Positions 21,176-46,236 of a DNA stretch of 64,000 nucleotides are shown one piece after another. How positions within the stretch are numbered: position 1 is the stretch's first letter; each line of letters opens with the position of its first letter. The notes beneath the pieces were generated by a model. That model had not been told where the DNA came from. It saw only the letters and a list, made by a program, of their open reading frames with translations, and made no database searches. The translations under genes were made by a program, and so were the position numbers. Source of the DNA: a virus; the IMG/VR virus record IMGVR_UViG_3300037466_003456, positions 57,682 to 121,681 of that record; one strand, 5' to 3'.

Positions 21176-21201
21176 GATAGCAATAGCTTGAACTAAAAAT
21201 G

Positions 21202-21235
21202 AGAAAAGCGTCCTATGTGGCGCTTTTCTTTTTTG
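21202..21235 (+). terminator. Intrinsic terminator
   Basis: AGAAAAGCG/CGCTTTTCT stem plus T-tract. Confidence 0.65.
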
Positions 21236-21258
21236 TATTATATAGGACTTAAAATCTA

Positions 21259-21267
21259 GTACAATAG
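21259..21267 (+). promoter_or_regulatory. Candidate late-promoter motif GTACAATAG (also at 15687 plus, 42072 minus)
   Basis: Identical 9-mer upstream of the TerS candidate, the 21313 gene and the holin, always in the coding orientation. Confidence 0.4.
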
Positions 21268-21312
21268 AACTATCGAATAAAACGAACTTATGGAGATAGT
21301 AGGTGAAACCTT

Positions 21313-22755: not shown

Positions 22756-23047
22756 CTTGCCCGTTGATCAGCACCCCACCGAAAGATGGGCAACTATTGT
22801 GGAAGGGGCCAGAACCCAACGCGTTATTGCCCTCCGATACCGGGATAAATCGTTCGAGGTGTCCGAAAGATTGGTTGAACCCTACGAGATCAAACAAGGA
22901 AAACTGTTTGCCCACTGTTTAACGAAAAACGGAATGAGAGCATTTATCCTCGACAACATTTTAGCGGCAGCAGGTACAAACACCGAGTTTGTTCCTCGCT
23001 TCCCTGTTGTCGTGGAATCCTTCCAGTCCTTGAAAGCAAAACAATAA
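22748..23047 (+). CDS. Stand-alone WYL-domain protein
   Basis: LRYRDK...SERLVEPYEI...LFAHCLTKNGMRAFILDNI matches the WYL fold pattern; ATG at 22748 coupled to the upstream stop. Confidence 0.75.
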   Translation: MYNLPVDQHPTERWATIVEGARTQRVIALRYRDKSFEVSERLVEPYEIKQGKLFAHCLTKNGMRAFILDNILAAAGTNTEFVPRFPVVVESFQSLKAKQ

Positions 23048-23070
23048 GCACCTCCCATAGGTGCTTTCTT
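23046..23070 (+). terminator. Intrinsic terminator
   Basis: AAGCACCT/AGGTGCTT stem plus T-rich tail. Confidence 0.55.
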
Positions 23071-23096
23071 CCATATAAAAGAGGTGAACCTTTTTA

Positions 23097-24986
23097 ATGA
23101 TTAAAATTTCGTCTTTTCTCGTCAATGACAGAGCAACAAGAGTATATGCCGATTATGTTGAAAAAGTCGCATTTCCAATAGGTGCTGACGCTGGTTTGAT
23201 TATGGGTTCGATTGCTGCTGGACTAACAATGAATCACTTCTCCAGAAAAGCAAAAGAGCAACAGCAACAACAAAACGCACAGCCATCTCCTAGCATTGAA
23301 AATGGTGCGTACACCCAAATTGAAAATATGTTACGTGATCTTAAAATTGTTTTCACACCGATTAGCGTCATTTATTCGGTGAATGGGCAAGTATTTGAAA
23401 TCATCAGTACCGAAGAAATGAATGCTTATATGAGGCAAGCGTTCATCCAAAAAGATGCTAATTATTTTCGTGACCTTCTCTTAAACAAAATTAATATGGA
23501 AACACAATTAGCCGAGCAAGCCTTTGCCCAGCGCCTTTTGACCGCAAACGGAGTGGGTGAACAGCAAAAGCAGGCAAACTTCCTGGAAAAACAAGAATAC
23601 CTTTTGAAACTTTCGGAAGAAGAAAGCGATGTTTTGGTGAAAAAAGCATCGCAAGGATTGGATGGAGTAAAAATCACCATCGACCCAACTTTTGATTCTC
23701 TCCGTCCCTTCGATCATTCCATCACTTTTTGCAACCCGAGGGAATTGGAAAAAGTGGCAGGCATTTTTGAATTATTCCAAGGCGATCAAGTTCAAGATGT
23801 CGGAGTTCATCAATTAAACAGTCAAGTGAACGTCGGATTCCTTCCTGACAGAGTGGTGTTCTTGTGGAATGGACAACTGATTGACCAGCTTACCCTCCTT
23901 CACATGAATGAAGAAGGTTTTGAAGCATTCCGGAACCGAGATAAACCATTTTTTATCGACTTATTTAAGCAATATACCAAAGAAGTAACGGAGGGATTAC
24001 AGGAATCTCCATCGGAACCAAATCATATTGAAGCGCCTGAAGAGGAAACCCATGAAGCTTCTGTATCCGACATTCTGGAACGGCTAGAAAAGACTGCTGA
24101 GGGCTTTGAGGACATCCTAGATGACTTTACTCCTGTTATTGAAAGAGATCATATAGAGCTATTTGAAGATCCTGATATCCATCCGATTGTGTACGACAAA
24201 GTATTGTCTCACAAGTACAGCAATTCATGGCACAGACACGAAATGGAATCAATTATGAAACAGATTGAGGAGGACTTCCACCTATCTAAAGGGATAGAGG
24301 AGAATCCACTTAATAAACTTTCCATCATTCATGCCATTTCGAATCCTGACCACGCCATGTACACATCACCATTTACATTTGAAAAGTACATGCGTGGTAT
24401 GAATTCCAAATCCGTTTTATTTGAGGATTTTCAAGGCAATCTCTCTTTCGAGGAAATCATGTTTGGTTTGGAATTAGCCAAACTCTATAACGGAGAGGAA
24501 GTGTTTTTTGAGTTCCACTCCAATGTTGCTGCTTATGTAGCAGAAGAAATCATGAATGATGGAGTTCGATTTGTTTCTAACGTGCTATACGACGAAACGA
24601 ATCCATCTGAAAATGATTTCTTCCGTACAGTCAATGACTTACTGATGAGGAAATGGAAAGAAGAAGATTCACTGGGATACAGGGATAACGAGGGCGTTCG
24701 CCATCGACATACATTAACGGAACAGATTGTTGAAATCGCCGATGACATCTTAAAACATTACAATTCTTTGTTGGATGTTGCGGATCCCTACAATTCTACC
24801 CGAAATATTTTGCGAAGTGAAAACTTACTGGATGTTGTTTCTTCACAAGACCAAACAAGTGTGAGAAACATGGTGGTTCAGAATGTTGTGGCTCATGTCA
24901 CCACTTCCTTGTTTTTAGATTATAAACGTGAAGAATATGAACACTCCATCTCATTGTTACAGAAAGAAGGTGTGCTAAATGGATGA
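23097..24986 (+). CDS. Hypothetical putative virion protein upstream of portal
   Basis: 629 aa; EKVAF followed by a hydrophobic Gly/Ala segment, LEKVAG, LERLEKTAE; overlaps the portal start. Confidence 0.7.
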   Translation: MIKISSFLVNDRATRVYADYVEKVAFPIGADAGLIMGSIAAGLTMNHFSRKAKEQQQQQNAQPSPSIENGAYTQIENMLRDLKIVFTPISVIYSVNGQVFEIISTEEMNAYMRQAFIQKDANYFRDLLLNKINMETQLAEQAFAQRLLTANGVGEQQKQANFLEKQEYLLKLSEEESDVLVKKASQGLDGVKITIDPTFDSLRPFDHSITFCNPRELEKVAGIFELFQGDQVQDVGVHQLNSQVNVGFLPDRVVFLWNGQLIDQLTLLHMNEEGFEAFRNRDKPFFIDLFKQYTKEVTEGLQESPSEPNHIEAPEEETHEASVSDILERLEKTAEGFEDILDDFTPVIERDHIELFEDPDIHPIVYDKVLSHKYSNSWHRHEMESIMKQIEEDFHLSKGIEENPLNKLSIIHAISNPDHAMYTSPFTFEKYMRGMNSKSVLFEDFQGNLSFEEIMFGLELAKLYNGEEVFFEFHSNVAAYVAEEIMNDGVRFVSNVLYDETNPSENDFFRTVNDLLMRKWKEEDSLGYRDNEGVRHRHTLTEQIVEIADDILKHYNSLLDVADPYNSTRNILRSENLLDVVSSQDQTSVRNMVVQNVVAHVTTSLFLDYKREEYEHSISLLQKEGVLNG

Positions 24987-27012
24987 AAACATGAAAGCCG
25001 ACATTTCCCGCATGGAAGAAAAGATGGCGAACTATCTTGATAAATTAACAGGTCATTCCGATGGAATGTTTAAAACGGCGGCTGCTACTGGGATGATGTA
25101 TAACTCCAGCTACAAACAATATCGTTCCAGCTTTTTAACCCTCGGAGATATGCAAATTCCTGATGATTATCGGGAGATTTTTAGATGGTGCCGATACTTT
25201 TTTAAGTTTGATAGTTTGGTTGGGGCGGCAGTTCGTTCACTAGCCACCTTCCCGATAACAGATTGGGTGTTAGATGATACGGAGAATTCCGACGATGAGG
25301 ATTCAGAGGATCAATCAGAGGATGAATCAGAAGAACCCTCTGAAACTTACAAATTTTACGAGAGTATCTTAAATGACATCAAGCTATACAGCCACATGAT
25401 TGAGGTTGGCTACGATTACTTCTTGTACGGTAACTGTGTCATATTTGCCGAGCCGGGAGTCAAGAATATCAAACGTCGTGACCCTGACACCGGACAAGTA
25501 TCCGAAAGAAAAGAAGTGGTTTGGAAATCGATTCAACGATTGGATGTTACCCGTCTTCGGATTGACCGAGACCCAAAAACAAATGAAAAACAATATTACT
25601 ATGACATTCCTTTGGAATTAAAGCGTGTCATTCAAACGCAGAAACCGAAGGAAAAATACGATAGAATACCAGAAATTTTCAAAAAGGCGGTTAAAGCAAA
25701 AGGATTGGTCAAACTAAAATCCGACTACATCTATCATTTGCAGATGCCTTCTGAAAGCGGAGATTCAGGATTATGGGCCACACCACCGGTGTTACATGCC
25801 ATGAAGCTTATCTTGTATTCGAACGTGTTGAGACAAGCGCAAGAAGCGATTGCCTATGAACATATCATCCCTAAGCGGATCTACTATTTCCAAGAAACGC
25901 AGGAGTATTCGCCAAACATGGACTTTGCTTCCATCGCTTCCGAGTTCGCCCTTGAATTAAAACGTCAGCTCGATGATCCAAACTACCAGGTCATTAGCCC
26001 GTTCCCAATCAATCAGCTCATGCATGGCGGACAGGGTAAGGCATTGATGCTCGTTCCTGAATTGGAACAGCTGCAAGAAACCATCTTAGCGGCGATGGGT
26101 ACTCCACGTGAATTCGTTTTTGGAGGAGTTTCCTATTCTGGCAGTACAACGAGTCTACGAATCTTGGAAAACCAATTTATCACGTACCGTACCAATTTAC
26201 TGGACTATATCAATGATTTCTTAATTAAGAGATTGGCAGAAATCCGAGGTGAATGGGAAACCATCGACGATGATAAAAAGCTCGTAAAAGTTCAGTTTGC
26301 CGAGCTCAAGATGCAAGATGATATCCAACAAAAGCAACTAATGTTGCAACTCAATGAAGCGGGTAAACTGCCGGATGAAGTGTTGTACGAAAAGGTATTG
26401 GGCCTCGATGCCAGCAAGACGATTAAGCAATTGCAGGCAGAACGCATCCGAAAACTAAAAGAGCAAGCAGAACTGCAAATTAACCAAATGGAAATTGAGC
26501 AGGAAATGCAAGATGAAGCGATGCAGAGGGGATTAATGACTCCACCTGTTCCTGTGAATGGTCCTGTTATTCCTGAACCTGCAGCAGGCGCATATGGTCA
26601 GGCAACCGAGGGAGACCCGATGATGGCTGAGGCTGGCGGTGATATGGCTGGCGATCCTACAGGAGGAGCTCAACCGACTTCGGACAGTAGTCAATCTTCT
26701 TCTGGTTCAAGTAGCGGAAGTAACTCATCATCAAAATCGGACAAGTCATCATCCGATAAAAAATCCGGTGAATCGGGTGGTAAGTCGGGACGTGAGGAAC
26801 GCGATGCCTTAAAGATGGCTCAGCAAATGGAACTAATGACTGAAGCACAAAAGGCGAATCTTATCCGCAAACTTCCTCAGAAGGAAGCGCAACGGATTCT
26901 CCTATACTACAACCAGTTAAAGGCAGAACACGGTTCATCCGATTCTGGAGAAACCGACATGAGACCATACCCTGAACAGCGCCCACCACGTAGAACGGTC
27001 GGTGGTGTGTAA
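24979..27012 (+). CDS. Phage portal protein
   Basis: REIFRWCRYFF...GAAVRSLATFP, AIAYEHIIPKRI, GGQGKALM, ILAAMGTPREFVFGG; low-complexity C-tail; located near terL. Confidence 0.75.
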   Translation: MDENMKADISRMEEKMANYLDKLTGHSDGMFKTAAATGMMYNSSYKQYRSSFLTLGDMQIPDDYREIFRWCRYFFKFDSLVGAAVRSLATFPITDWVLDDTENSDDEDSEDQSEDESEEPSETYKFYESILNDIKLYSHMIEVGYDYFLYGNCVIFAEPGVKNIKRRDPDTGQVSERKEVVWKSIQRLDVTRLRIDRDPKTNEKQYYYDIPLELKRVIQTQKPKEKYDRIPEIFKKAVKAKGLVKLKSDYIYHLQMPSESGDSGLWATPPVLHAMKLILYSNVLRQAQEAIAYEHIIPKRIYYFQETQEYSPNMDFASIASEFALELKRQLDDPNYQVISPFPINQLMHGGQGKALMLVPELEQLQETILAAMGTPREFVFGGVSYSGSTTSLRILENQFITYRTNLLDYINDFLIKRLAEIRGEWETIDDDKKLVKVQFAELKMQDDIQQKQLMLQLNEAGKLPDEVLYEKVLGLDASKTIKQLQAERIRKLKEQAELQINQMEIEQEMQDEAMQRGLMTPPVPVNGPVIPEPAAGAYGQATEGDPMMAEAGGDMAGDPTGGAQPTSDSSQSSSGSSSGSNSSSKSDKSSSDKKSGESGGKSGREERDALKMAQQMELMTEAQKANLIRKLPQKEAQRILLYYNQLKAEHGSSDSGETDMRPYPEQRPPRRTVGGV

Positions 27013-27347
27013 TGCTTCGTGCCTATGATCTTTCTTCCATGACGGAAAAAGCAAATGAATTATTAAATGATCCATCCTTACGGTTAATTAGCTTAAATAT
27101 TTCCTGTTCTGCTGAAACGGCCTACACGGTTGCAAGCATGCGTCTTGCGCCGTGTCCTGCTAGGGAAACGAGATTCAACCGCTATTTGGAACGATTCATT
27201 TTGCTTGGAGGAAGTGGGAATCATGATTTAGATAGAAAATTAGCCGATAAAAATGTTCGATTGCTGAAACAGCATATTTTCCCGACCAGCGAAGGGACGA
27301 TCGTGGTCATCGATTATCAGGTTAAAAAAGGAAGGACGGTTGACTAA
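27012..27347 (+). CDS. Hypothetical protein coupled to portal and RNAP
   Basis: 111 aa; TAATG overlaps at both ends. Confidence 0.6.
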   Translation: MLRAYDLSSMTEKANELLNDPSLRLISLNISCSAETAYTVASMRLAPCPARETRFNRYLERFILLGGSGNHDLDRKLADKNVRLLKQHIFPTSEGTIVVIDYQVKKGRTVD

Positions 27348-30300
27348 TGGAACAGTTCAATCATCAGCAAGCGGTTGAAAACCTACATGCTAAAGTAAAA
27401 GCTATTTTTGATCAATACTTCCCATACGAAAGAAATGATTATCGTTTTGAGGTGAAGAACATCCACTTCGAAGATCCTTCCATTTCGCATGCTAGCCAAG
27501 AACAGGCTTTCTTAAATGACTCCAGCATTGAATCCCTTGTTCGTGGTGACGTAGAAGTTTACCACAAAGGGCAGTTGGTGAAGACACACACTAATCAAAT
27601 TCTAGTCCGTATCCCTTACCCAACGGAAAGAGGTACATACATTGCAGCAGGAAACGAACTGGCTGTTTTAAATCGTATGTCGAGAAGGAATGGAATCTAC
27701 ATTCACCCTGTTAGGGATATTCGGCATACGCAAATCCTTACAGCAGAAGTCCGTTCAAAAGGCTCTCGTTTCGAAATCAATTTTGATACAAACAGAGGTC
27801 AAATCAAGATTGAGAAATTAGGAGATTTCGGTAAAAGCAGTCCTGGTTCCATTGATTTAATCTCATTCCTTCATGTATTAGGTGTAACGGATGCGGAAAT
27901 CAAGTCCGCTGTGAATGATAAGGAATTGTCAGATACCCTTCTTGCCAATTCAACCAATGCGACTACACAAAAAATCTACACCGCTATTTTTGCCAAGGAA
28001 TATCCGGGAGCAGAAGAAGCAAAGCAACAAATTATTGATTTCGTCAATGGTCGCTTAGTCTTTGATCAAGACGCCCAAAAAGTGAATAATCAAACCATTG
28101 GTTCTCCTATCAGCGTATTTGATGCCAGCGCCTTTTTACAGACACTTTCCCAGCTTAGTAAGGAATACCGAAGTCCGGGAACAACGGTGGAGCCTGACGA
28201 TTTCCGTTTTAAAGAAATTAAGGCACCAGAAGACACCGTTTCTGAATTTGTCCGCAGAGGGATTAAGGAGTGGGTAGACAAAAGGCTCCGTCCGATTACT
28301 TATTCCGATTACAATGACCGAAAAACCATCAATGCCAAACCAGACCAATTCATTTACAGACCTATTAAATCACTCTACAACAGTGATATTGCGGAACTAG
28401 TAGATAGCGCAAATCCTCTGGATGTGCATCAAAAACTCTATAAAGTAACACAGGTCGGCACTGGAAATATGAACAAGAAATCGGTAACGAACTATAACCG
28501 TAATATTCAGGACACAGCATTTGCGAAAGTCGATGCCCTTGAAACTCCACAAAGCTACAGTATGGGATTGGTGCAGCATTTCGCTTCGGGAGCCAAAATT
28601 AAGGATGGCCGTGTCTATTCGAAGTTTTATCGGGTGAACAATGGAAAAATCGATACAAGCAAAGTTATCGATGACATTGACCCTCTCGACGAGTATGAAG
28701 AGTTTATCGGATTTAACACACCCGCAGAATTAAATAAGGATGCAAGTGGCCATATTACTTCTTTCAAAAACGATCAGGTTCGAGTCCGTCATCACGGGAC
28801 CTTCATGACCGTTCCGAAAAATCAAGTAACCCTAATTGATACCAGTTCTTCTGCACATATGAGCCATGCCTTGAGTTTAATTCCATTTGGTGCAAGCAAT
28901 GATGGCGCGCGTATGCTGATGGGAGCATCGATGCAAAAGCAATCGTTAAATCTCGAGAATCCTGAAGCTCCACTTGTGCAAAGTATATCCGATCCTGTAA
29001 CCGGAAAAACAGTTGAACAAGAAATGGCAGACCGAGCTTCTTATATCCTTCGTTCCCCTGTCAGCGGCACGGTTAAGCATATTGGAGAAAACTCCATTGA
29101 TATCGATACGGGAGATGGTGTTCATAAGGTTGACAAGCTAAATTATTTTGTCACAGGCAAAGCAGGTGGATTTATTCATCACAAACCAACAGTGAAAGTC
29201 GGAGATACCGTTCAGAAGGATGATTTGCTTGCTGACGGCTGGCAAAGTAAGAACGGACAGTTGGCATTGGGTAGAAACATCACCGTCGCTTACATGCCGT
29301 TTAAGGGCTACAATTTTGAGGATGGAGTAGTAGTTTCAGAGAGTTTCGCTAAAAAAATGGCGTCGGAAGAAGTAAAACCTCTTGAGATTATCCTAGAATC
29401 ACAGAATGGCAGAGTTTTATTCAATGACCCTAAAGCAACGTCCATCCTTAATGGGTTACACGTGTCTCCTGCCCTGTTATCTAAGTTGGATTCAAACGGA
29501 ATCATCAAGAAGGGCGAGGAAGTTCATGCTGGCGATATCCTTGTCGCAGCGGTAAAGGAAATTGAAAAAGAAGATTTATCAGCTGGACAAAGAGATTTGA
29601 AGAATTTACTGCGTGGGAAGATCGTTCAAAGCGAAGCCGATAATTACAAAGATGTTTCCCGGAGAGCAGTCGGTTACCAGAAAGGAAAAGTCATCAATGT
29701 GCAAGTGACCAATACCGCAGAAGGACAAACTAAAGTAACGATTCTTCTTTTATCCTTCAAACCCATGGAATTGGGAGATAAACTATCTGGAAGACACGGA
29801 AACAAGGGTACGATTACTAAAATACTTCCTGACGATCAAATGCCTCATACAGAGGATGGAAAGCCAGTTGAATTGATTTTCTCCCCTCTTGCGGTGCCGT
29901 CGAGAAAAAATCCGGGGCAGCTTTATGAAGTGAATGCCGGACTGGTCGCACAGAAAAAAGGAATGGATGTTTACAAGGTTCATAACTTTGATGCCAATGA
30001 AGTGGATAAGCTGAAGAAACACCTTGAAGACATTGGCATGCCAGATGGAAAGCAAACATTGATTAATCCCGACACCGGAAAACCTTATGAAAATAAGATT
30101 ACTGTGGGTCCCATGTTTATTTTAAAACTGAAACATAAAGTAGAAAGCAAGATTACGGCAAGAAATATAAACGGTTCTCAGGATCCTCTCAAATTATCGC
30201 CAAGAAAAACATCAGGTTCCATTGATGGGGATCGCCACAATCCGCAATCTGTGGGGGGAATGGAGTTCTGGAGCCTAACAAGCGCCGGCGCTGTTCATAA

Positions 30301-33300
30301 CATTCACGATATGACCACTCTTAAATCCGATGGAGCTGGAGATAAAAAACGACGGAAAGAAATCTTTGATGCGATAAGACGTGGGATGCCGATTCCTGAA
30401 CCTGTCACTCCTCAGAGTGTGAAGATATTAGGAGACAAACTATTATCCGCAGGGGTGCAAATGACTCCTCTTCGTGAAGATAAACAAGTTTCTCTCGATG
30501 ATAAGTTTACGGAACTTATGCTCAATCCATTAAGAAAAGACGACCTTATGAATCTGGCAAAAGACAAGGTAACTTCTTCTAAGGGGATGATCGCAAGAAC
30601 CAAAAATTTCGCTCCTGGCGGTATTTATGACCCTGAGATTTTTGGTGCAGACGGTTCACAATGGGCAAGGATTGATTTAGCGGAACCAATGCCAAATCCG
30701 TTATTCCTTGAAAACAATACGGGACCTCGCCCATATGAAGCGATGTTGTTTTCGAAAGGATATAAACAAACGGACATTAAAAATCTAGTGAATGGTGATA
30801 TGTTCCTTGTAGAAGACCCGAAGGATTCAGGATTAAAACAAGGAGAATTGGTCAATTTAAAACAGTTAGACGACCTAATGGCAGAAGGAAAAAAACTAGT
30901 GACTGATACCGGAGGTAGAGCCCTTTCAAAGTTATTAGAAAAGGTTGATATAAAGGAAGAGTTAAAGAAAGCAGAAAGCCGTTTAAGTGAAGCAAAGACG
31001 CTTGCTCAACGCTCAAAGGCTGAACAACAAGTATTAGTATTAGGGAAAGCCTTAGATCAAAAATTGAAGCCGACAGACTTTATGATGACTTCTGTTCCTG
31101 TCCTCCCTGTTAAATATAGGGAACCTAAGCTCGACGGAAAAGTGTTTACCGAGGATGGAATCTCCAAACTCTATAACAACTTAATCAAAAAGAACGATGA
31201 ATATGAAAAATTCAAAGAGGCACATAACGGAGATCTTTCCAATTCGGACCGTTCCGCATACGCAGGAGCGATGGGAGATTACTACGATGGTCTTAAGGAT
31301 ATTATCGGCACTAAGCTAAAACCTGTAGTAGACGATAAGACTGGTCAGCCATTGAAAGGTATCATGCACACCTTAAAGTCCAAACAAGGATTTCTCCGTT
31401 CCAACATGCAATCGAAAATGCAAGATTACTCAGGACGTTCCGTTATTATCGTTGATCCTACTCTGAAGCTGGATGAAGTGGCCCTGCCGGAAGACATGGC
31501 AAGCGAACTGTTCCTCCCTCATGTCATGGGTGAGCTACAACGATTACGCTACTCTCCGAAAGAAATCGAACATTTTGTTACGCATAAGACGAAAGAATTC
31601 CGAGATGCCTTGGAGAAAGTAACCAAGAATCATCCTGTCATTTTAAACCGTCAACCTTCTTTGCACCGCCATAGTTTACAAGCCTTCTACCCTAGAATTA
31701 ACTGGAATGGGGATAAGGTAAAACATCGTGCAATCGGGCTAAATCCCGTTGTTACGACAGGGTACAACGCTGATTTTGATGGTGACACGATGTCTGTACA
31801 TGTGCCAATCACACCTGCTGCCATCGAAGAAGCAAAGAACAAATTGCTTCCAAGTCAGAATCTACTCAACCCGACAAACAATGGCATCATCACTGACCTA
31901 AAACACGAAATGCAACTAGGAATCTTCTATATGACACGGGATATTCTACCTCAAGGAAAGCCGGAGGAGTTCTCCAATTTCCGAGAATTAGAGGATGCTT
32001 ATAATAAAGGCCGCATTAAAACCTATGAATCGGTTCGGATGAATGTTCCTGGTATCGGTTTGGTCACAGCAACAGCAGGACAGCATCTATTTAACCTTTC
32101 TCTACCAATGGGATTCCAAGATTATGAGGGCAACAAAAACGTCAACAAAGGCAAGATGGAGAAGATTCTTTCTAAGATCATCAATGCTCCGAATGGCGGC
32201 GCTCAAAAAGCAGTTCAAGCGATCAATGCCTTACAGACGATTGGGTTCCAAACCGCCACATATTCAGGGATGAGCATTGGGGCAAAAGACTTTGAACCAG
32301 TGCTTCAGGAGAAACAAAACCATCTTTTAGAGGCGGCAGAAAAACAATTCGGTAAAGCAGAGAACCGATTAGCCGCAGGATTATTGGATGTACGACAGGT
32401 GTGGGATGAGGAGAAAGCAAAGCTCGCCAAGAATCATCTAGTCGATTACATTAAGACTTCCCTTGACTCTAACAATCCTGTGGAAATCATGCAGCGTTCA
32501 GGAGCTCGTGGTAATGCCGGACAGATCAATGCGATGGCGGGTATTATCGGGGTTGGTAAAGACGTCACAGGTCGGGAAACACGTGCGATTACCGGCTCTC
32601 ACCTAGAAGGTTTAAGTCCTGACCAATTCTGGGATTTAGCTTACGACAGCCGTAAAGGGATTCTGGATAAATCCATCTCTACTCAAGACCCAGGTGCTTT
32701 AACACGAGAAATCTGGATGACGAATAAGCAAACTGTCATTTCGGAACGTGATTGTGGTGATACGCAAGGTATCTGGCTGGATATGACAAACAGTAGTGAT
32801 AAACAAACCATTAAGGGGCGTGTGTTATTACATGATGTTCCCCTTTCAAAAGGCGGGGTTGTACGTGTCACTCGACGTCCTTTGACCGTTCATGAGGAAG
32901 AATTGATTATGTCTCATGCAAAAGGAAAAGTGAATGTTCGCAGTCCGTTAAGCTGTAAATCCACAAGTGGAGTCTGTCAGATGTGTTATGGAAGAAAGCC
33001 AGGAGGCGTGACGAATGATTTCATTCCAATTGGTGACCCTGTTGGAAGTATCGCAGCTCAGGCGCTGGGCGAACCATCCACTCAGGCCATCTTGAAGGCA
33101 TTTCACGTCGGCGCGGCCAATGCCGCTGCTTCAAATGCGTTTGAACGGATTCAAGAAGCTCTCCGGATTCCACAGCATTTGAAAAACACTTCTAAAGAGG
33201 CAGTCATTGCAGAGGAAGATGGTGTGGTAACAGATGTTGAACATCATCCGATTACCGGAACCGTTGTAAAAATCGGAAGCAAGAAATACAAATTGCATCA

Positions 33301-34072
33301 CAAAGTATTATCCGATTTCGTCAAAGCAGGTGCCCATATCAATAAGGGAGATTTGTTGACCAAGGAGTTTACAGATAGTGGCGATCGTTTGGTTATCCGA
33401 AATCCACATGATGTCTTAAAATTCCAAGGAGTAGATGCAGCTCAGGATTATATCATGAGAGCCATTGAAGATGGATACCACGCGGCGGATATTAAAGATA
33501 CAGACCGCAGACACTATGAGGTCATCACCCGTAATATGATGGATCATGCAGTCATCAAAAACCCTGGCACTTCCCCTTATACGTCAGGTCAGGTCGTTCC
33601 GCTTAGCACGGTGGAAAAATATAATCAGTTGGCCGGAAGAGTTCACTCTGTTGCGATGGATTACTCTAATCGGATGAATGTCATTGGAGCTGTGGCGGCA
33701 CAGGATTACAATGATCCAATCACCATGAAGCCAATTGTCCATAAAGGTGAAGTTATCACGGAACCTATTTGGGAACAACTGAAAAACAGACAGCATATCA
33801 AGGTTCAGAAAAAACCGCTTGAGTACGAGCGAAAACTTATCGGGGTTAATACTAAGAGCTTAAAAGGTAACAATTGGTTAGATTCCGCTGGTTTCGGGGA
33901 TGCAACCCGATTAATTGGCGAAGCGGCTGTCCTTGGCATGAAGGATAAGTTGGATACACCTCTTTCTCGTCAAATGACAGGACTAAAAGGTAACTTCTCT
34001 GACGGGTATGAACCGCACAAAGAGAAAGAAAAAGAACATGGAATTATGGCGTTTGTCCATGGTTTCTTGTAA
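27347..34072 (+). CDS. rpoBC: Single-chain fused beta-beta' multisubunit-type DNA-directed RNA polymerase
   Basis: Beta motifs ETPQ, ARMLMGASMQKQ, GYNFEDG, GDKLSGRHGNKG, PSRKNPGQ, GGMEFWSL; beta' motifs DYSGRSVI, LNRQPSLHR, catalytic NADFDGD (31766-31786), SGARG, RSPLSC, CQMCYG, GEPSTQ. Confidence 0.97.
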   Translation: MEQFNHQQAVENLHAKVKAIFDQYFPYERNDYRFEVKNIHFEDPSISHASQEQAFLNDSSIESLVRGDVEVYHKGQLVKTHTNQILVRIPYPTERGTYIAAGNELAVLNRMSRRNGIYIHPVRDIRHTQILTAEVRSKGSRFEINFDTNRGQIKIEKLGDFGKSSPGSIDLISFLHVLGVTDAEIKSAVNDKELSDTLLANSTNATTQKIYTAIFAKEYPGAEEAKQQIIDFVNGRLVFDQDAQKVNNQTIGSPISVFDASAFLQTLSQLSKEYRSPGTTVEPDDFRFKEIKAPEDTVSEFVRRGIKEWVDKRLRPITYSDYNDRKTINAKPDQFIYRPIKSLYNSDIAELVDSANPLDVHQKLYKVTQVGTGNMNKKSVTNYNRNIQDTAFAKVDALETPQSYSMGLVQHFASGAKIKDGRVYSKFYRVNNGKIDTSKVIDDIDPLDEYEEFIGFNTPAELNKDASGHITSFKNDQVRVRHHGTFMTVPKNQVTLIDTSSSAHMSHALSLIPFGASNDGARMLMGASMQKQSLNLENPEAPLVQSISDPVTGKTVEQEMADRASYILRSPVSGTVKHIGENSIDIDTGDGVHKVDKLNYFVTGKAGGFIHHKPTVKVGDTVQKDDLLADGWQSKNGQLALGRNITVAYMPFKGYNFEDGVVVSESFAKKMASEEVKPLEIILESQNGRVLFNDPKATSILNGLHVSPALLSKLDSNGIIKKGEEVHAGDILVAAVKEIEKEDLSAGQRDLKNLLRGKIVQSEADNYKDVSRRAVGYQKGKVINVQVTNTAEGQTKVTILLLSFKPMELGDKLSGRHGNKGTITKILPDDQMPHTEDGKPVELIFSPLAVPSRKNPGQLYEVNAGLVAQKKGMDVYKVHNFDANEVDKLKKHLEDIGMPDGKQTLINPDTGKPYENKITVGPMFILKLKHKVESKITARNINGSQDPLKLSPRKTSGSIDGDRHNPQSVGGMEFWSLTSAGAVHNIHDMTTLKSDGAGDKKRRKEIFDAIRRGMPIPEPVTPQSVKILGDKLLSAGVQMTPLREDKQVSLDDKFTELMLNPLRKDDLMNLAKDKVTSSKGMIARTKNFAPGGIYDPEIFGADGSQWARIDLAEPMPNPLFLENNTGPRPYEAMLFSKGYKQTDIKNLVNGDMFLVEDPKDSGLKQGELVNLKQLDDLMAEGKKLVTDTGGRALSKLLEKVDIKEELKKAESRLSEAKTLAQRSKAEQQVLVLGKALDQKLKPTDFMMTSVPVLPVKYREPKLDGKVFTEDGISKLYNNLIKKNDEYEKFKEAHNGDLSNSDRSAYAGAMGDYYDGLKDIIGTKLKPVVDDKTGQPLKGIMHTLKSKQGFLRSNMQSKMQDYSGRSVIIVDPTLKLDEVALPEDMASELFLPHVMGELQRLRYSPKEIEHFVTHKTKEFRDALEKVTKNHPVILNRQPSLHRHSLQAFYPRINWNGDKVKHRAIGLNPVVTTGYNADFDGDTMSVHVPITPAAIEEAKNKLLPSQNLLNPTNNGIITDLKHEMQLGIFYMTRDILPQGKPEEFSNFRELEDAYNKGRIKTYESVRMNVPGIGLVTATAGQHLFNLSLPMGFQDYEGNKNVNKGKMEKILSKIINAPNGGAQKAVQAINALQTIGFQTATYSGMSIGAKDFEPVLQEKQNHLLEAAEKQFGKAENRLAAGLLDVRQVWDEEKAKLAKNHLVDYIKTSLDSNNPVEIMQRSGARGNAGQINAMAGIIGVGKDVTGRETRAITGSHLEGLSPDQFWDLAYDSRKGILDKSISTQDPGALTREIWMTNKQTVISERDCGDTQGIWLDMTNSSDKQTIKGRVLLHDVPLSKGGVVRVTRRPLTVHEEELIMSHAKGKVNVRSPLSCKSTSGVCQMCYGRKPGGVTNDFIPIGDPVGSIAAQALGEPSTQAILKAFHVGAANAAASNAFERIQEALRIPQHLKNTSKEAVIAEEDGVVTDVEHHPITGTVVKIGSKKYKLHHKVLSDFVKAGAHINKGDLLTKEFTDSGDRLVIRNPHDVLKFQGVDAAQDYIMRAIEDGYHAADIKDTDRRHYEVITRNMMDHAVIKNPGTSPYTSGQVVPLSTVEKYNQLAGRVHSVAMDYSNRMNVIGAVAAQDYNDPITMKPIVHKGEVITEPIWEQLKNRQHIKVQKKPLEYERKLIGVNTKSLKGNNWLDSAGFGDATRLIGEAAVLGMKDKLDTPLSRQMTGLKGNFSDGYEPHKEKEKEHGIMAFVHGFL

Positions 34073-34629: not shown

Positions 34630-34712
34630 CTCCTAAAATTGTTATTTACTTCCACTTTGCTTATAACATGATTATTTACATAATTTGCGAATCAATAAAA
34701 AAAGAGACCAGC

Positions 34713-34901
34713 TTATTTGCTAGTCTCTTTGACTGGTAAAACTTCACTTACTGGTATTTCTTCACCTGTTCGTCTATCCACGATGTATAGGTGCGCACTC
34801 CCATAAGCACCACCTCTGGCCACGAAGGAAACCGCATATCTCTCTTCGATTTCCTCTAACTCATGGACAGCAAGCGCGGCTCGATATTTCATATCTTTCA
34901 C
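34713..34901 (-). CDS. Hypothetical protein
   Basis: 62 aa; overlaps the dinG stop. Confidence 0.5.
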   Translation of the reverse strand: MKDMKYRAALAVHELEEIEERYAVSFVARGGAYGSAHLYIVDRRTGEEIPVSEVLPVKETSK

Positions 34902-36970
34902 CCCTCTAGTTGTAACGATTGGATATATGCTGCCACGTCTTCCCAGTTCTTTGTTGCCTTAATTTTAAAGTCGAATGAATTAAATATCCTGTTTTTGTAG
35001 CTTGCGGAGGATAGCCTTCCTTCATAGCAAGCAAAAATTCCTTTATCGGTTGCCGTTCGGTTCAGTCGTCCAGAACCTTGCTTCAGGCTGATAATCGCTT
35101 CTGGCAAACTAAACGTATAGAATCCTCTTGGCTCCGACATGAGGTAATCGTTAATTGGATCAGCAACCATCGGAAAAGGTAGTTTATCTATCAAGACAGC
35201 TGATAAGTTCTGACCTTGAATATCAATACCCGTAAACAGAGATTTCGTTCCAAGAACAACTGTATCCGGATGTTTTTTTAAATGATCGATGATTTTCTGC
35301 TTCGGCCATTTCTCTTGTGAAATCACTTGAATGGATTTCGGCAATACTCGAGTAAAATAGGTTTCTGCTTCTAATAGGTTTTTCCTTGATGTGAACAAAC
35401 ACAACGTGCGACCGTGCAAAAGATTAATGACCTTTTCCATCTGCACCAGAACAAAGGGCAAATGTTCCTTATCGGTACCTGCAGGTGTGCCAGGCGGCAA
35501 ATACCAAAGAAAATTATTCTCTAAATCAAATGGGGAGCTAACGATGATTTCCTTCACAGGAAAGCGTTCTTGGTCACTCTCAATGCCGAGATCCGACTTA
35601 ATATGTTCAAACGACTGATTGGCAGAAAGGGTAGCGGACATCACAATCGGAATATATCCTTCTTCTCTCTTTTCAAACAATCGTTTGGTGAGTGCTGCTC
35701 CTGTAGTTGGTTTGGCATGAAGACTAACCATATCGTTTAGCGGTTGGAGCCAAAACAAATCCGTTCCATCATCCTGGTTTTCTTCATAATGAAAGATATA
35801 TTCCAACAGGTTTGCTTTTTGTTCCAGCAGTTCCATTAAACGATAGACAATGATAAACCACTCTACCGAATCATCCCCATACATTTCAGCAGTCGCATGG
35901 ATACTTTCCATGGAAAAACCAAACTTTCTTAGGTAGTTTTCTGCTACCCCCGCAGAGAAACGTAGCGCCTCGATATGGGCGGTTGCATACTTTTGGAGAC
36001 GAGTACGCTCAGGCACCTCTATTTGCCAAAAATCACGGGTGTAGTGACCTCTCACGACCCTTTTATATTCATGTGTCAGACCGACAAACATATCCGTCAA
36101 AGTTCCGTTTACCTGGTCTAACTCCATATCTGTAAAAATATTTATTACAGTTTCTCCTACTTCTGAAAGTTCTGCTCTTTGCATGGCTTTGGCGAATTGG
36201 TCAAAGTGGTTTTTAAGGATACTGATGCTGTATTTTCTCTCTTGAAAGTCTCGGGCGATCGTGCTGACCTCGTGCCCTTCGTCACATATAAGGACTCGCG
36301 CTTTTGGAGGCAGCATATTTACTTCATCCAAAGCAGAGAAGAAGTAGTGGTAATTACAGACGACTAATTTGGAAGTAGCCACTTTCTTTCTTTCTCGATA
36401 ATAATGACAAGTGTCGTAAAACGGACATTGTTTTCCGGTACACTCATTATTATCCAAACAAGCGACCTTCCCCCATACAACGGCGCTTGGATTGAAGTCC
36501 ATTTCGGATTTGTCACCTGTTTTGGTACTGACTGCCCACTTCATGACACTATCATACTCTTCCGCATAATCGGGAGAGGAGAATCCAACTTTTCCACTTA
36601 ATGCATCATTCAGTTTTTTAGGACATAAATAATTGTTTCGCCCTTTGATAAGAACTGGCGTTGCTTGGAAATTATACAGTTTCTCTAGTGTCGGAATATC
36701 TTTATTAATATACTGTTCTTGAAGGATGATCGAGCTAGTGGCAACTATCACCGGTTCATCCGTTTTCATAATATGTTCGAAAGCTGGCACAAGGGCGGCT
36801 AAACTTTTGCCGACCCCTGTAGGAGCTTCTCCTAACAATGCTGACTCGTCTTTGATGGCTTCTTGTATCTTTTGAGACAGTTCCACTTGTTGAGGTCTCT
36901 CTTTGTAATTTGGAACAGCCTTCGCTAATAACCCCTGTTCACCGAACGTTTCGGTTACTAAATCCCTCAT
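34898..36970 (-). CDS. dinG: DinG/YoaA-family Fe-S ATP-dependent DNA helicase
   Basis: GEAPTGVGKS, KGRNNYLC plus three further Cys, NYHYFF, DEGHE, MSATL, LFTS, GIDIQG, IDKLPFP, QGSGRLNR; start taken at ATG 36970. Confidence 0.92.
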   Translation of the reverse strand: MRDLVTETFGEQGLLAKAVPNYKERPQQVELSQKIQEAIKDESALLGEAPTGVGKSLAALVPAFEHIMKTDEPVIVATSSIILQEQYINKDIPTLEKLYNFQATPVLIKGRNNYLCPKKLNDALSGKVGFSSPDYAEEYDSVMKWAVSTKTGDKSEMDFNPSAVVWGKVACLDNNECTGKQCPFYDTCHYYRERKKVATSKLVVCNYHYFFSALDEVNMLPPKARVLICDEGHEVSTIARDFQERKYSISILKNHFDQFAKAMQRAELSEVGETVINIFTDMELDQVNGTLTDMFVGLTHEYKRVVRGHYTRDFWQIEVPERTRLQKYATAHIEALRFSAGVAENYLRKFGFSMESIHATAEMYGDDSVEWFIIVYRLMELLEQKANLLEYIFHYEENQDDGTDLFWLQPLNDMVSLHAKPTTGAALTKRLFEKREEGYIPIVMSATLSANQSFEHIKSDLGIESDQERFPVKEIIVSSPFDLENNFLWYLPPGTPAGTDKEHLPFVLVQMEKVINLLHGRTLCLFTSRKNLLEAETYFTRVLPKSIQVISQEKWPKQKIIDHLKKHPDTVVLGTKSLFTGIDIQGQNLSAVLIDKLPFPMVADPINDYLMSEPRGFYTFSLPEAIISLKQGSGRLNRTATDKGIFACYEGRLSSASYKNRIFNSFDFKIKATKNWEDVAAYIQSLQLEG

Positions 36971-36983
36971 TGTCAAGACCCCT

Positions 36984-37289
36984 TTATTCTTCGTTAACGA
37001 ACGCTTCCGCCCAAATGCCTTCATCCTCTGTATAATTTAACTCGATAACGGTGACATTTGGATCGAACGAATGATATCGTTCAAGGAAACTTTGGATTCC
37101 TACTAAGATGTTCTCAGTCTCTAATTCTTTTTTATATTTAGATCTGTAAACTGCTATAGCCGAGAACTCGCCACCTATGTGGTAATTAATTTCTTTTACA
37201 TCCACATATTCAGGGTCTCCGTCATATTGATCCGCTACGTATACACAGATGCCGTCAATTATTTCTTGTTCGTTCAATTCAAGTTTCAT
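36984..37289 (-). CDS. DUF2653 (YxcD-like) protein
   Basis: NEQEIIDGICVYVA...VDV...FSA...NILVGIQSFL...IELNYTEDEGIWAE resembles the Bacillus YxcD family. Confidence 0.6.
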   Translation of the reverse strand: MKLELNEQEIIDGICVYVADQYDGDPEYVDVKEINYHIGGEFSAIAVYRSKYKKELETENILVGIQSFLERYHSFDPNVTVIELNYTEDEGIWAEAFVNEE

Positions 37290-43672: not shown

Positions 43673-44359
43673 ATGTTATTCCCTATTATTAAAACAAATT
43701 CTGAGCCATTCGAAAAACAAGCGAGCATCCTTGGTTTATTGGCTGGTATGGGAATTGGAGAGCTGGGCATGCAAGCTGCTTCCAAGTTCGGTCAAAAGAG
43801 AGGAGCAAACCTGTTGCGAACGGGCATAGATTTAAGTCAGAAGGGAGAGAAGATGGCACCCTTGACTGAAACCCTTTCCCGGAATCTTCTCGGCAACAAG
43901 GCGATGTCTCCTTATGATGCTGGCTTGAAAATCGGTAACAAGATCACAGAAAAAAATATGGAACCTGAACGGGCTCAAAAGTTTATTGACCGTGTGGTGA
44001 AATGGAATGTAGACAAAAAGACACGATTGGAACAGGCAGGGGAGAAAGTAAAGGACCCTGTTCTTCATGCCATGGATGATTACCTACTTTTTAAAGACCT
44101 CAAACACCCGAAGTTCCAAAAAATGTTGAATGAGGGAAGTATTCCACAAGAGAAAAGCGGAGCAGGAGGGAAGATTGTCGGTAATGCTCTAACCGGTCTA
44201 GCAGCTCCGCAGAGTTGGGGAGATTTTCGTTTTGCTGCTCGCCCTCTCGTCCGTAAAGCAGAGAATACGCCTGCTGTTCAAAATGCACAGAACAAACTAT
44301 TCCCTGCTGGGACGATGCGAGAAAAAGGATACAACATGGTTAGGAATTATATTGATTAA
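43673..44359 (+). CDS. Isolated plus-strand KxA/glycine-zipper protein
   Basis: ORF track 43622..44359; ATG 43673 after AAGGAG; FEKQASILGLLAGMGIGELG. Confidence 0.65.
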   Translation: MLFPIIKTNSEPFEKQASILGLLAGMGIGELGMQAASKFGQKRGANLLRTGIDLSQKGEKMAPLTETLSRNLLGNKAMSPYDAGLKIGNKITEKNMEPERAQKFIDRVVKWNVDKKTRLEQAGEKVKDPVLHAMDDYLLFKDLKHPKFQKMLNEGSIPQEKSGAGGKIVGNALTGLAAPQSWGDFRFAARPLVRKAENTPAVQNAQNKLFPAGTMREKGYNMVRNYID

Positions 44360-45272
44360 CTGGGGGAATCGGTACTCCATTTCTGAAGAAGTATCCTAGC
44401 CGTTCAAATTTACCTCGAACGGCTAGAGCGCTTTTTCCCACCTTTTGAGCGATTGTGTTCAAACCATAACCCTGATTGTACATAGAAATAATTAATTGTT
44501 CCTGTTCTGGTGTCCATAGTCTTTTTTTAGTTTGCTTTGGATTCTTGGCACCCAAATCATACAATTTTCTCTTAATAGCTGCTTCCGACCGTTTTAACCG
44601 TTCGGCTATTTCGGGATAGGTATACTTCTGAGAATTGACCATGCCCAGTAATGTGTTGATATCTTCTTTTGACCATGCCACTTTTAATTTCTTTTCAAAG
44701 TTCAATTTATCTGCATCTCGTTTCACTTTCACCCATTCAGGCTCAGGACCTAATCGAAATGGTTCAAGACGTGAAAAGTTAATCGTTTGCTTGTTCTTTT
44801 CTGCCCACTTCCAAAACTCCTCATACCCGATGACCCAAACTTCCATTTCTTTTACAAATATCTTTTTATAGGCCGGCATGCCGTACTGAGTTACCCAATT
44901 TAATACAATGCAATAAGAAACATTAAAAGCATTTGCTAACTGATTGATAGTGATTCCGTCAAAGGAAAGCGTAGCATCGCCTAGTCCCATTTTTACGACT
45001 TTTTCTCTGACAGAATTAAAACTTCTACCAAGTTTTTTAGCTATGTCTTCGATGCTTATTACCCCTAATTTTTCTTCAACATATAATTCTTCTCGTTCTG
45101 ACCACTCTCGACCTTTGCGATCTTTGATATCGTCTAGCTTTAATCCTAATTTTCTTCTTTTTTGGTCAATTGAGTGGAATGGCCTTTTTAATTTTTTTGA
45201 TATATATTGCTCTCCTTGGTGCCAATTCTTGATTAAAAAATCTATCTCTTCTTGTGCCCATTTACGGTACAT
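44340..45272 (-). CDS. Multi-HTH (Myb/SANT-like W-x-x-E repeat) DNA-binding protein
   Basis: KWAQEE, EWSERE, AWSKED, LWTPEQ, each followed by IAxxLxRS-type helices. Confidence 0.65.
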   Translation of the reverse strand: MYRKWAQEEIDFLIKNWHQGEQYISKKLKRPFHSIDQKRRKLGLKLDDIKDRKGREWSEREELYVEEKLGVISIEDIAKKLGRSFNSVREKVVKMGLGDATLSFDGITINQLANAFNVSYCIVLNWVTQYGMPAYKKIFVKEMEVWVIGYEEFWKWAEKNKQTINFSRLEPFRLGPEPEWVKVKRDADKLNFEKKLKVAWSKEDINTLLGMVNSQKYTYPEIAERLKRSEAAIKRKLYDLGAKNPKQTKKRLWTPEQEQLIISMYNQGYGLNTIAQKVGKSALAVRGKFERLGYFFRNGVPIPPVNQYNS

Positions 45273-45856
45273 TACAATACCATCTCCTTGATGTACAAAT
45301 TGCGAAACTTAATAAAAGAGCGCTTTACAATCTTTTTAGCTTGATACGTACTGGTATTCTTTCCTTCGATTAACTCACTTTTGGAATACCCGTCAATGTA
45401 ATTGATAATATCAAACCTCTGCCGTTCCGAAAACTGGCTGAATATCTTCCGCAAGATGACCTGATCTATAACATCAGAGGAAAAAGTCTCATCAACCCCA
45501 ACCACTTCCATCAATTCGGTTTCATCGCCATTCTTTCCTCTTAATGTTGACTGTAGGCTCTCAACGGACTTTATTTGAGCCGTCTTATTTTCTGATTTTG
45601 GCTTATGCTTCAAATGGTATCGTAGCACTTCATTGATAACATATTTTTTAGCCAATGTTCCAAATGTAAACCCTCGTTCAATATCGTAGTTCTTATAGGC
45701 CTTCCATAAACCAATTGAAGCGGTTTGGAATATATCATCTCGATCATACTGAACCCAAATATACGCCTGTTTGTTCATCAAAGGAGTATACATTTTATAC
45801 ACTTCTTCAAAAGACATTTCTTTTCTTACACCTTTAGGTAAAATTAGTATTTTCAT
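45272..45856 (-). CDS. Sigma-70 family sigma factor (short, regions 2+4)
   Basis: DDIFQTASIGLWKAYKNYDIERGFTFGTLAKKYVINEV; C-terminal FSERQR...GYSKSEL. Confidence 0.85.
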   Translation of the reverse strand: MKILILPKGVRKEMSFEEVYKMYTPLMNKQAYIWVQYDRDDIFQTASIGLWKAYKNYDIERGFTFGTLAKKYVINEVLRYHLKHKPKSENKTAQIKSVESLQSTLRGKNGDETELMEVVGVDETFSSDVIDQVILRKIFSQFSERQRFDIINYIDGYSKSELIEGKNTSTYQAKKIVKRSFIKFRNLYIKEMVL

Positions 45857-46236
45857 TACCAAACCCTCCCGACGGGTAAATTTCGATACTTATAATGTTC
45901 ATCCTGATAAGACAAATGGAATTGATTAATCATCTTAAGAAAATCATGATCTATCGGCGGTTCAACCACATCATATCTAAAATTAATAAAATCCTTTCTC
46001 TCTTCCTGGCTTACATATTGGAATTCATTTTCATCTCCATATAATTCAAGAGATGTAAGCATTTCATATAATTCATTGATCGAATCTTCTTGTAAAACCG
46101 TCCATATAAACGGCGGTTCATTCTCTAAGAAACCAACGCTATCATAGGCATCTAACAACATCGTTCTTATTTCCGACATTTTGTACCAATGGGCTTTGTT
46201 CAATATTTTCCAACCTGAACCAGTTATAAGATCCAT
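45856..46236 (-). CDS. Hypothetical protein
   Basis: 126-aa ORF with GGAGG RBS. Confidence 0.6.
   Translation of the reverse strand: MDLITGSGWKILNKAHWYKMSEIRTMLLDAYDSVGFLENEPPFIWTVLQEDSINELYEMLTSLELYGDENEFQYVSQEERKDFINFRYDVVEPPIDHDFLKMINQFHLSYQDEHYKYRNLPVGRVW

Follow-up and report, generated by a model that had tools for sequence, protein, structure and literature searches.

Identity and domain organization of the polymerase

The IMG/VR virus record IMGVR_UViG_3300037466_003456, from an uncultured soil phage (121,681 bp; approximately 80% complete according to CheckV, no end repeats found) was analyzed with emphasis on positions 57,682 to 121,681, a stretch of 64,000 nucleotides that is referred to as the window and to which coordinates refer unless stated otherwise. 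On its plus strand lies a gene for a cellular-type RNA polymerase in which beta and beta' are joined in a single chain of 2241 amino acids (aa). This protein, P0001, is a member of a phage-specific lineage and not a captured host gene, and its gene is the only polymerase locus found in the whole record. The gene, its modules and the sites discussed first are:

27347..34072, plus strand: beta-beta' RNA polymerase gene, 2241 aa, P0001 (open reading frame [ORF] listing and translation, Pfam, structure matches)
27347..30484, plus strand: beta module, approximately residues 1-1046 (Pfam and NCBIfam rpoB models)
30485..34069, plus strand: beta' module, approximately residues 1047-2241, no separate linker domain (alignment with Bacillus beta')
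30617..30690, plus strand: site of the beta' N-terminal zinc-ribbon deletion, between EIFG and ADGSQW (alignment with Bacillus)
31766..31786, plus strand: catalytic NADFDGD motif, residues 1474-1480 (translation, family alignment, alignment with bacterial and mReC enzymes)

According to the ORF listing and translation, the gene is one unbroken frame with an ATG start. An earlier note, made from the letters of this DNA, had read beta blocks followed by beta' blocks, including NADFDGD, in one 2241-aa ORF, and both the translation and the Pfam matches agree with it. Nine beta and beta' families were matched in the same order as in bacteria (Rpb2_3, Rpb2_45, Rpb2_6, and Rpb2_7, then Rpb1_1 to Rpb1_5). 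Both barrel domains of a two-barrel polymerase are present (beta barrel Rpb2_6, PF00562, E = 4.8e-71; beta' barrel PF00623, E = 1.6e-29), together with the Mg-binding DxDGD motif, and so are the accessory elements Rpb2_3/45/7, Rpb1_1/3/4/5, the trigger loop, and the second zinc site. The best matches among solved structures were bacterial beta' (E = 8e-114) and beta (E = 6.7e-95) chains. Pfam, NCBIfam and the Bacillus alignment show beta homology stopping at residues 1039-1047 (the NCBIfam and Pfam rpoB models end at 1039-1040) and beta' following nearly without a linker, with the NCBIfam rpoC model spanning residues 1140-2096. The beta/beta' junction is thus near residue 1046, at about nucleotide 30485, within the interval of 30470-30500 that had been proposed.

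P0001 is modestly compact, with 2241 aa vs. 2409 aa for the sum of Bacillus beta and beta' in locus L150 (script-called ORFs). Relative to Bacillus, approximately 90 residues of the beta lobe region are absent, and a 55-residue insert is found close to the C-terminus; the first ~330 residues of the beta module form a shortened protrusion/lobe region with no Pfam match. The four-Cys zinc ribbon characteristic of bacterial RpoC is cleanly deleted, as 33 Bacillus beta' residues with the CxC...CxxC pattern have no counterpart in P0001. In the alignment, the trigger loop retains FH and is short, with no SI3 insert, and the rifampicin cluster I region is diverged; the residues that we take to be equivalent to E. 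coli H526 and S531 are Lys and Thr, respectively. Because of the divergence of this region, P0001 may be insensitive to rifampicin.

In 18 aligned family members, sharing 69% to 26% identity, the aspartates D1476, D1478, and D1480 of the catalytic motif and the cysteines 1803, 1870, 1877, and 1880 of the second zinc site are unchanged, and about 100 further positions are likewise invariant. Several relatives carry insertions of 296-566 aa exactly at NADFDGD, the trigger-loop FH, GRHGNKG, PSR, and ETP (the last three in beta), with up to three insertions per protein (P0023, P0054, P0067-P0081; L021, L036, L037, L040, L051, L053, L056, and L059). Intein or homing-endonuclease Pfam families (LAGLIDADG or Hom_end) are recorded on several of the insertion-bearing relatives; P0001 itself has no intein-type insertion. 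Since these intein-type insertions sit at active-site motifs of the relatives, the pattern argues for an essential, active enzyme. That P0001 is a decayed or repurposed homologue without polymerase activity could be read from its diverged rifampicin pocket and lobe, from the missing zinc ribbon, and from two substitutions in the trigger loop (M to L and R to K). Such a loss of function is nevertheless very improbable, as the 6.7-kb frame is intact, no family member deviates at the catalytic and zinc-site residues, and relatives ranging from 90% to 26% identity keep a constant length, with intein-type insertions at the active-site motifs.

Position among bacterial and phage enzymes

The identity of P0001 to bacterial, plasmid-borne, and deposited phage polymerases is at most ~30%, in agreement with the divergence noted earlier, and for Bacillota enzymes, among them those of Bacillus and Clostridioides, it amounts to 28-30%. 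No close copy was found in a collection representing 185,579 species of bacteria and archaea, just true bacterial rpoBC with at most 31% identity, and the contigs of species-representative genomes contained no prophage copy. One locus, L087, was first suspected to be phage and proved to be an ordinary Saccharibacteria rpoB/rpoC pair. The NCBIfam thresholds for bacterial RpoB and RpoC were missed by a wide margin (TIGR02013, 387.7 vs. 801; NF001616, 448.1 vs. 896; TIGR02386, 564.7 vs. 963.5). Some family members are called beta/beta' in the JGI annotation.

Trees were built from a beta plus beta' data set consisting of family proteins from a search of 5.8 billion proteins, IMG/VR loci, Vibrio phage D69, and 19 bacterial rpoB-rpoC pairs; the trees include 16-19 bacterial representatives from many phyla, with 5-6 Bacillota rows. 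FastTree was run on 65 rows and 1867 columns, and IQ-TREE (LG+C20+F+G4) on 46 rows and 1125 columns, in both cases on a fast FFT-NS-2 (MAFFT) alignment trimmed to well-filled columns; the trees are unrooted, with no outgroup. In both, Bacteria form one group (support 99-100) with Bacillota inside, the mReC loci, with separate beta' and beta genes, form a group of their own (99-100), and all fused proteins together with those of the type seen in phage Arash (OQ632216; PMC10585845) form a third group (100). This third group is phage-only, with a Shimodaira-Hasegawa-like support of 100%. The rows nearest to P0001 are P0004 and P0009, followed by the F2 group, which includes L009. The phylogeny against bacterial and mReC polymerases that the earlier note had called for consequently separates P0001 from both, and clustering within host Bacillota rpoBC, named there as the outcome that would speak against its interpretation, was not observed in either tree. 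The clade is probably deep-branching; the unrooted trees give no indication of its age.

A recent capture of Bacillota rpoB-rpoC genes from the host, fused later in the phage, would agree with the bacterial motif order and with the fact that the likely host family (Priestia/Bacillaceae) belongs to Bacillota. This scenario is refuted by both trees, where Bacteria are monophyletic to the exclusion of the clade, and by scores far under the NCBIfam cut-offs; considering also the 28-30% identity to Bacillota enzymes and the lack of a close copy among the species representatives, we give it practically no credence.

Traits of the fused clade

In 42 of the IMG/VR loci the polymerase is encoded by one fused ORF, which has 1930-2200 aa or, where insertions are present, as many as 2944 aa. 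Another ten loci have the Arash-type arrangement, with beta and N-terminal beta' in one gene and C-terminal beta' in another, and the remaining loci are mReC-like. The Arash-type split in beta', at residues ~1565-1573 of P0001, coincides with the boundary between gamma and beta'' (rpoC1/rpoC2) in cyanobacteria and plastids; loci split in this way include L002, L003, L028, L030, L034, and L077. The zinc-ribbon deletion is common to all 16 fused-clade and Arash-type rows displayed, whereas the mReC and bacterial rows displayed keep the beta' ribbon. Of the 42 fused loci, 39 have a portal homologue upstream in the same orientation (in half of them within 1.2 kb), and two of the three exceptions have no upstream sequence. 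This linkage between portal and polymerase persists at protein identities of 25-33%. P0001 shows the three traits of the clade, with beta fused to beta', the ribbon lost, and a portal gene upstream on the same strand.

In the open-access literature, we found no description or enzyme study of the fully fused, ribbon-less, and portal-linked clade. It is this form that appears to be new, whereas partly fused cultured relatives and phage-encoded cellular-type polymerases were already known. The isolated position that the earlier note had implied for the enzyme does not hold, given these partly fused cultured relatives and dozens of fused homologues from metagenomes and isolates.

The mReC polymerases resemble P0001 in being phage-encoded, bacterial-like beta/beta' enzymes outside the cellular clades, and they also come from IMG/VR (PMC7481178). 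However, in all entries considered from the supplementary table of that study, beta (~1000 or ~1365 aa) and beta' (~900-1000 aa) are separate genes, and the proteins listed have at most 1563 aa (PMC7481178), while P0001 is a single ORF. The IMG/VR loci that we assigned to mReC have the order beta' then beta, opposite to that of P0001, and keep the zinc ribbon within a clade of their own (99-100), to which the ribbon-less P0001 does not belong. Furthermore, mReC phages have T4-type capsid and terminase proteins (PF07068, PF03237), in contrast to the GpA-type terminase of the window phage. The mReC rows of our trees include L066 (IMGVR_UViG_3300017989_000062; 149,482 bp), taken as an entry of the mReC table. 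L066 and several other contigs of that table have two different beta/beta' pairs each (PMC7481178), a situation similar to that of jumbo phages with their virion and non-virion enzymes. Fused genes may have been missed by a pipeline relying on separate hits for beta and beta'.

The RpoBC proteins of Helicobacter and Wolbachia are likewise single chains with beta before beta', joined at the same termini. They differ from P0001 in their length of ~2840-2890 aa and in being ordinary bacterial enzymes: the Wolbachia row falls inside Pseudomonadota in the FastTree phylogeny, whereas P0001 lies outside the bacterial clade, and P0001 fails the models for fused RpoBC (NF007172 and NF011417, 588 and 562 bits vs. 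cut-offs of 5372 and 4632). Helicobacter and Wolbachia encode alpha, and their RpoBC fusions are understood to need it.

The exclusion of the phiKZ/AR9, YonO, and crAss types in the earlier note was borne out, as P0001 consists of one ORF at one locus and matches nine beta/beta' Pfam families. The phiKZ/AR9 enzymes share with P0001 that they are two-barrel phage polymerases without alpha and omega, and one of their sets is packaged in the virion (PMC7598289). By analogy, they can be considered the closest functional model for P0001. They are, however, far more diverged and divided over four or five polypeptides in two paralogous sets of split subunits, in contrast to the one continuous chain and full Pfam coverage of P0001, and their phages have no recognisable sigma factor (PMC7824862), whereas the window phage has a sigma gene. 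The crAss-like gp66, YonO, and the tape-measure-fused polymerase of P23-45 are single-chain two-barrel phage enzymes like P0001, but have hardly any parts other than the two barrels and escape the beta/beta' family models. Of these, gp66 is virion-delivered, and the P23-45 polymerase has been described as such.

Gene neighborhood

The polymerase gene is located at the end of a plus-strand block (8113-34072) with the following features:

16912-18567, plus strand: GpA-type large terminase (GpA_ATPase PF05876 / phrog_675)
21243..21249, plus strand: TAGGACT element after a terminator-like hairpin; candidate start of a late unit, 21313-34072
24979..27012, plus strand: portal protein, 677 aa (AlphaFold2 [AF2] model and Foldseek; homology to Arash gp204)
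27012..27347, plus strand: small ORF, 111 aa, between portal and polymerase, with TAATG overlaps at both junctions

The portal was identified from an AF2 model with a predicted local distance difference test (pLDDT) score of 68.9, for which the Foldseek matches listed were all portals of phages or archaeal viruses (E down to 2.4e-10), and from its 25% identity (E = 1e-40) to the annotated portal gp204 of Arash. The earlier note had placed the polymerase directly downstream of the portal. The identity of the portal and the coupling were confirmed, but the two genes are not directly adjacent, since the 111-aa ORF lies between them, and a Shine-Dalgarno-like AAAGGAAGG precedes the polymerase start. 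The 111-aa ORF has seven homologues besides itself, all close kin, with an invariant CSxETAYTVA...R...C motif; two of them are on contigs equal in size to those carrying close polymerase homologues. Its AF2 model (pLDDT 89.4) consists of two beta-alpha-beta-beta units; in the structure search, matches were to generic ACT/ferredoxin-like folds (Z not above 5.8), with none resembling omega or alpha. An accessory subunit encoded upstream of the polymerase throughout the clade was considered and dropped, as the small ORFs of distant loci share the position without detectable sequence similarity.

The last intergenic gap before the polymerase (21176-21312) contains a terminator-like hairpin followed by TAGGACT. 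This element occurs in all four gaps identified in the plus-strand head block (7934, 12567, 15651, and 21243), in three of them after a hairpin and T-run. With 20 copies in the genome vs. 15.8 expected, TAGGACT is not enriched, and only its placement in the head-block gaps stands out; this makes it a candidate for a late promoter or a regulatory site. Between 21313 and 34072 there is neither a gap nor a strong terminator, and the polymerase is therefore the last cistron of this late-looking unit. Scans for sigma-70-type promoters and terminators around the polymerase gene gave background levels. The inverse form, AGTCCTATA(A/T)AA, was seen upstream of several plus-strand genes of the tail block.

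Other genes nearby include a 108-aa WYL-domain protein (22721-23047, plus strand; PF13280, E = 9e-7) in the late head operon, two genes before the portal, and a PhoH-like ATPase (11791-12528, plus strand; PF02562, E = 2e-41) inside the structural block. An XPD/DinG-type helicase (DEAD_2 and Helicase_C_2; 34898-37024, minus strand) is convergent with the polymerase gene, and synteny is kept in L009, the closest of the complete relatives (30% identity). A conserved pairing of polymerase and helicase was considered and then abandoned, as this helicase is unrelated to gp217, the helicase encoded in Arash next to the C-terminal beta' gene.

Helper subunits, sigma factor and promoter-like motifs

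No match to alpha (PF01000, PF01193) or omega (PF01192) was found in the whole 121,681-bp record, which extends the absence of both subunits previously noted for the window. In 12 related records searched in full (Arash, D69, and 10 from IMG/VR, nine of these ten with a completeness of 90% or more and three with direct terminal repeats), there was no credible match to alpha PF01000; the sole hit (E = 0.02) lies in a frame containing stop codons. A gene for a sigma factor is present in the record. The features concerned are:

45272..45862, minus strand: sigma-70-family factor P0126, 196 aa (Sigma70_r2, TIGR02937); candidate specificity subunit
34660..34668, minus strand: copy of the TGTTAYAAG-N4-GTG motif nearest to the polymerase (motif scan)
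6721, 7865, 14280, 34660, 48265, 50074, 60295, and 62254, minus strand: copies of TGTTAYAAG in the window (motif scan)

P0126 matches Sigma70_r2 (PF04542, E = 4.6e-8; 33.2 bits vs. a cut-off of 24) and, over residues 18-187, TIGR02937 (44.7 bits vs. 42.9), and contains regions 2 and 4. Just two close homologues of P0126 were found in a word-indexed search, and Sigma70_r2 matches are present in eight of the 12 related records, four of them above the cut-off. Read by eye, the P0001 translation seems to keep both the clamp helices of beta' and a segment resembling the flap tip, which is compatible with sigma binding. Just downstream of the sigma gene, with a 1-base overlap, lies the gene for a 310-aa protein with multiple helix-turn-helix domains (44340-45272, minus strand; HTH_38, HTH_23, Sigma70_r4_2-like, and Myb-like).

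In the 121.7-kb record, 17 copies of the motif TGTTAYAAG, in most cases with N4-GTG behind it, were counted, all on the minus strand and mostly 30-70 nucleotides ahead of genes on that strand. The window contains eight of them, where 1.04 would be expected, and nine more are upstream in the genome. The motif, also written TGTTATAAG-N4-GTG, resembles an extended -10 element with G for the usual last T, and it looks like the promoter used by blocks of non-structural genes. Either a phage holoenzyme or the host polymerase could recognize it.

The fused chain could also be one part of a hybrid enzyme that needs a host alpha dimer (and omega), comparable to the RpoBC of Helicobacter and Wolbachia. 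The near-bacterial architecture of P0001 is in line with this, and missing phage alpha genes are equally expected of an enzyme that borrows alpha. However, the hosts of the clade are diverse (Salmonella, Vibrio, and Priestia-type) and identity to host polymerases is at most ~30%, making conserved docking of alpha less likely, while phiKZ/AR9-type enzymes are active without alpha (PMC7598289) and a packaged enzyme would need to be active on arrival. We therefore regard a hybrid enzyme as unlikely.

Cultured relatives and probable virion packaging

The closest cultured relatives are Arash, with the polymerase proteins gp206 and gp216 (OQ632216; PMC10585845), and the Vibrio phages D69, D181, and D148, whose polymerases belong to the same clade as P0001 and are nested with fused metagenomic rows. 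They are isolated phages of Gram-negative hosts with genomes of 181-187 kb. Arash and D69 share with the window phage the order portal, small ORF, polymerase, the zinc-ribbon deletion, the absence of an alpha gene, and the presence of a phage sigma factor. In Arash, the portal gp204 is followed by the small gp205, by gp206 (1525 aa, matching residues 25-1565 of P0001), and, further downstream, by gp216; a portal homologue is upstream of the polymerase in D69 too. Unlike the continuous chain of P0001, the Arash-type enzyme has beta fused to the N-terminal two thirds of beta', and the C-terminal piece, not separate in the window phage, has its own gene, 4.8 kb further downstream in Arash and 0.6 kb in D69. 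The identity of the Arash-type polymerase to P0001 is only ~26%. In D181 and D148, homing-endonuclease genes are found within the polymerase region.

The Arash record and paper name the polymerase subunits, and the paper reports their detection in particles; the enzyme itself was not studied there (PMC10585845). The D69 record lists the polymerase parts as hypothetical proteins. With 3516 spectra, gp206 was the most-detected virion protein of Arash, above the major capsid protein, and gp216 (1210 spectra) and the sigma factor gp10 were present in the particles as well (PMC10585845). By analogy, P0001 is probably packaged in the virion, and the linkage to the portal and the position in a late-looking operon strengthen this assumption. 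The late expression and packaging proposed in the earlier note thereby gain indirect support from the portal order of the 39 loci and from the particle content of Arash. The K-x-A motif, a proposed head-protease tag, has no copy in P0001, which is uninformative with ~0.6 expected by chance.

P0001 might instead be a non-virion polymerase that stays in the infected cell and transcribes middle or late genes, its position next to the portal reflecting shared late regulation. With a single polymerase gene, one enzyme would serve every phase needing it, two strand-specific classes of promoter-like motifs exist, and the virion evidence is from the split Arash enzyme, none being from fused members, with carry-over of abundant enzymes allowed for by the Arash authors. 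On the other hand, a polymerase for late transcription should precede the late genes, whereas this one is the last cistron of the head operon and coupled to the portal; the conservation of the portal linkage in 39 of 42 loci at 25-33% identity suggests more than chance co-regulation, and the Arash homologue out-counts the major capsid protein in particles. A purely intracellular role thus appears to be the less plausible fate of the enzyme, with a probability that we consider low.

Host and lifestyle

Homologues with 65-66% identity to P0001, annotated as hypothetical, were found in five Priestia megaterium isolate assemblies (WP_427598296, MGG4438235, WP_098793433, WP_336090141, and WP_328251222). 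Four are on contigs of 174.5-180.1 kb, which suggests that these contigs are whole carried phage genomes, and one is on a 27-kb contig. These homologues support a host within Bacillaceae for the window phage and hint that the element is stably maintained, as an episomal prophage or in a carrier state. The sole recombinase found in the record is a short tyrosine recombinase outside the window (G000:C1:36472-36927, minus strand; PF00589, E = 1.6e-23; 220-aa frame), which could be an integrase or the dimer-resolution enzyme of an episomal prophage; no serine recombinase was found in the record. Of the Bacillales-type, apparently temperate element described in the earlier note, the Bacillaceae host is thus supported by the Priestia homologues, while temperateness is suggested by the one recombinase and the same homologues and is plausible but unproven.

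Proposed role of the polymerase

Taken together, it seems fairly probable that P0001 is the active, single-polypeptide, two-barrel core of a deep-branching phage lineage, packaged, independent of alpha and omega, and directed by sigma. The polymerase would be made late alongside the head proteins, through the coupling from portal to 111-aa ORF to polymerase, packaged into the capsid, and brought into the next cell with the DNA. There it would transcribe phage genes independently of the host polymerase and with no phage-encoded alpha or omega, promoter choice coming from one or more phage sigma factors such as P0126 (45272-45862).

Several observations weigh against this model. The record is ~80% complete, and an alpha-like or second polymerase gene could be in the missing part; alpha and omega could also be borrowed from the host. 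P0126 has no detectable relation to the Arash sigma factor gp10, is located among minus-strand genes and not among the head genes, and may redirect the host polymerase. The Arash particle preparation gave 116 of 272 phage proteins, and carry-over is raised by the authors (PMC10585845); abundance in these particles is for this reason not proof of specific packaging. The particle evidence comes from the split, ~26% identical Arash enzyme alone, and packaging in the window phage accordingly stays an inference.

A more specific version of the packaged, sigma-directed enzyme is put forward tentatively, as we consider it somewhat doubtful: a self-sufficient chain without alpha, omega, and zinc ribbon would be placed in the capsid beside the portal, travel with the DNA through the tail, and start a host-independent and rifampicin-insensitive transcription programme set by phage sigma factors, for example from TGTTAYAAG-N4-GTG. 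If true, no simpler sigma-programmable polymerase of cellular type would be known, and the enzyme would mark an ancient lineage of ~120-190 kb phages spanning Gram-positive and Gram-negative hosts.

The assembly of cellular-type RNA polymerases is considered to depend on a platform formed by an alpha dimer, and, to our knowledge, the only well-studied exceptions are the highly fragmented and highly diverged enzymes of jumbo phages. The clade described here is the opposite case, as a single chain has almost the whole bacterial architecture and is accompanied by a sigma partner, while no alpha gene was found in the nine related records with at least 90% completeness or in the two isolate genomes. 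As a single expressible gene, P0001 makes it testable whether the assembly platform can be substituted by fusion, which function the beta' zinc ribbon serves, and how a 250-kDa enzyme could be packaged and delivered, and it could provide a one-gene, sigma-programmable orthogonal transcription system. The unannotated homologues of Priestia megaterium are a cultivable entry point, and the polymerase is a long, alignable marker for classifying a large and mostly uncultured group of phages.

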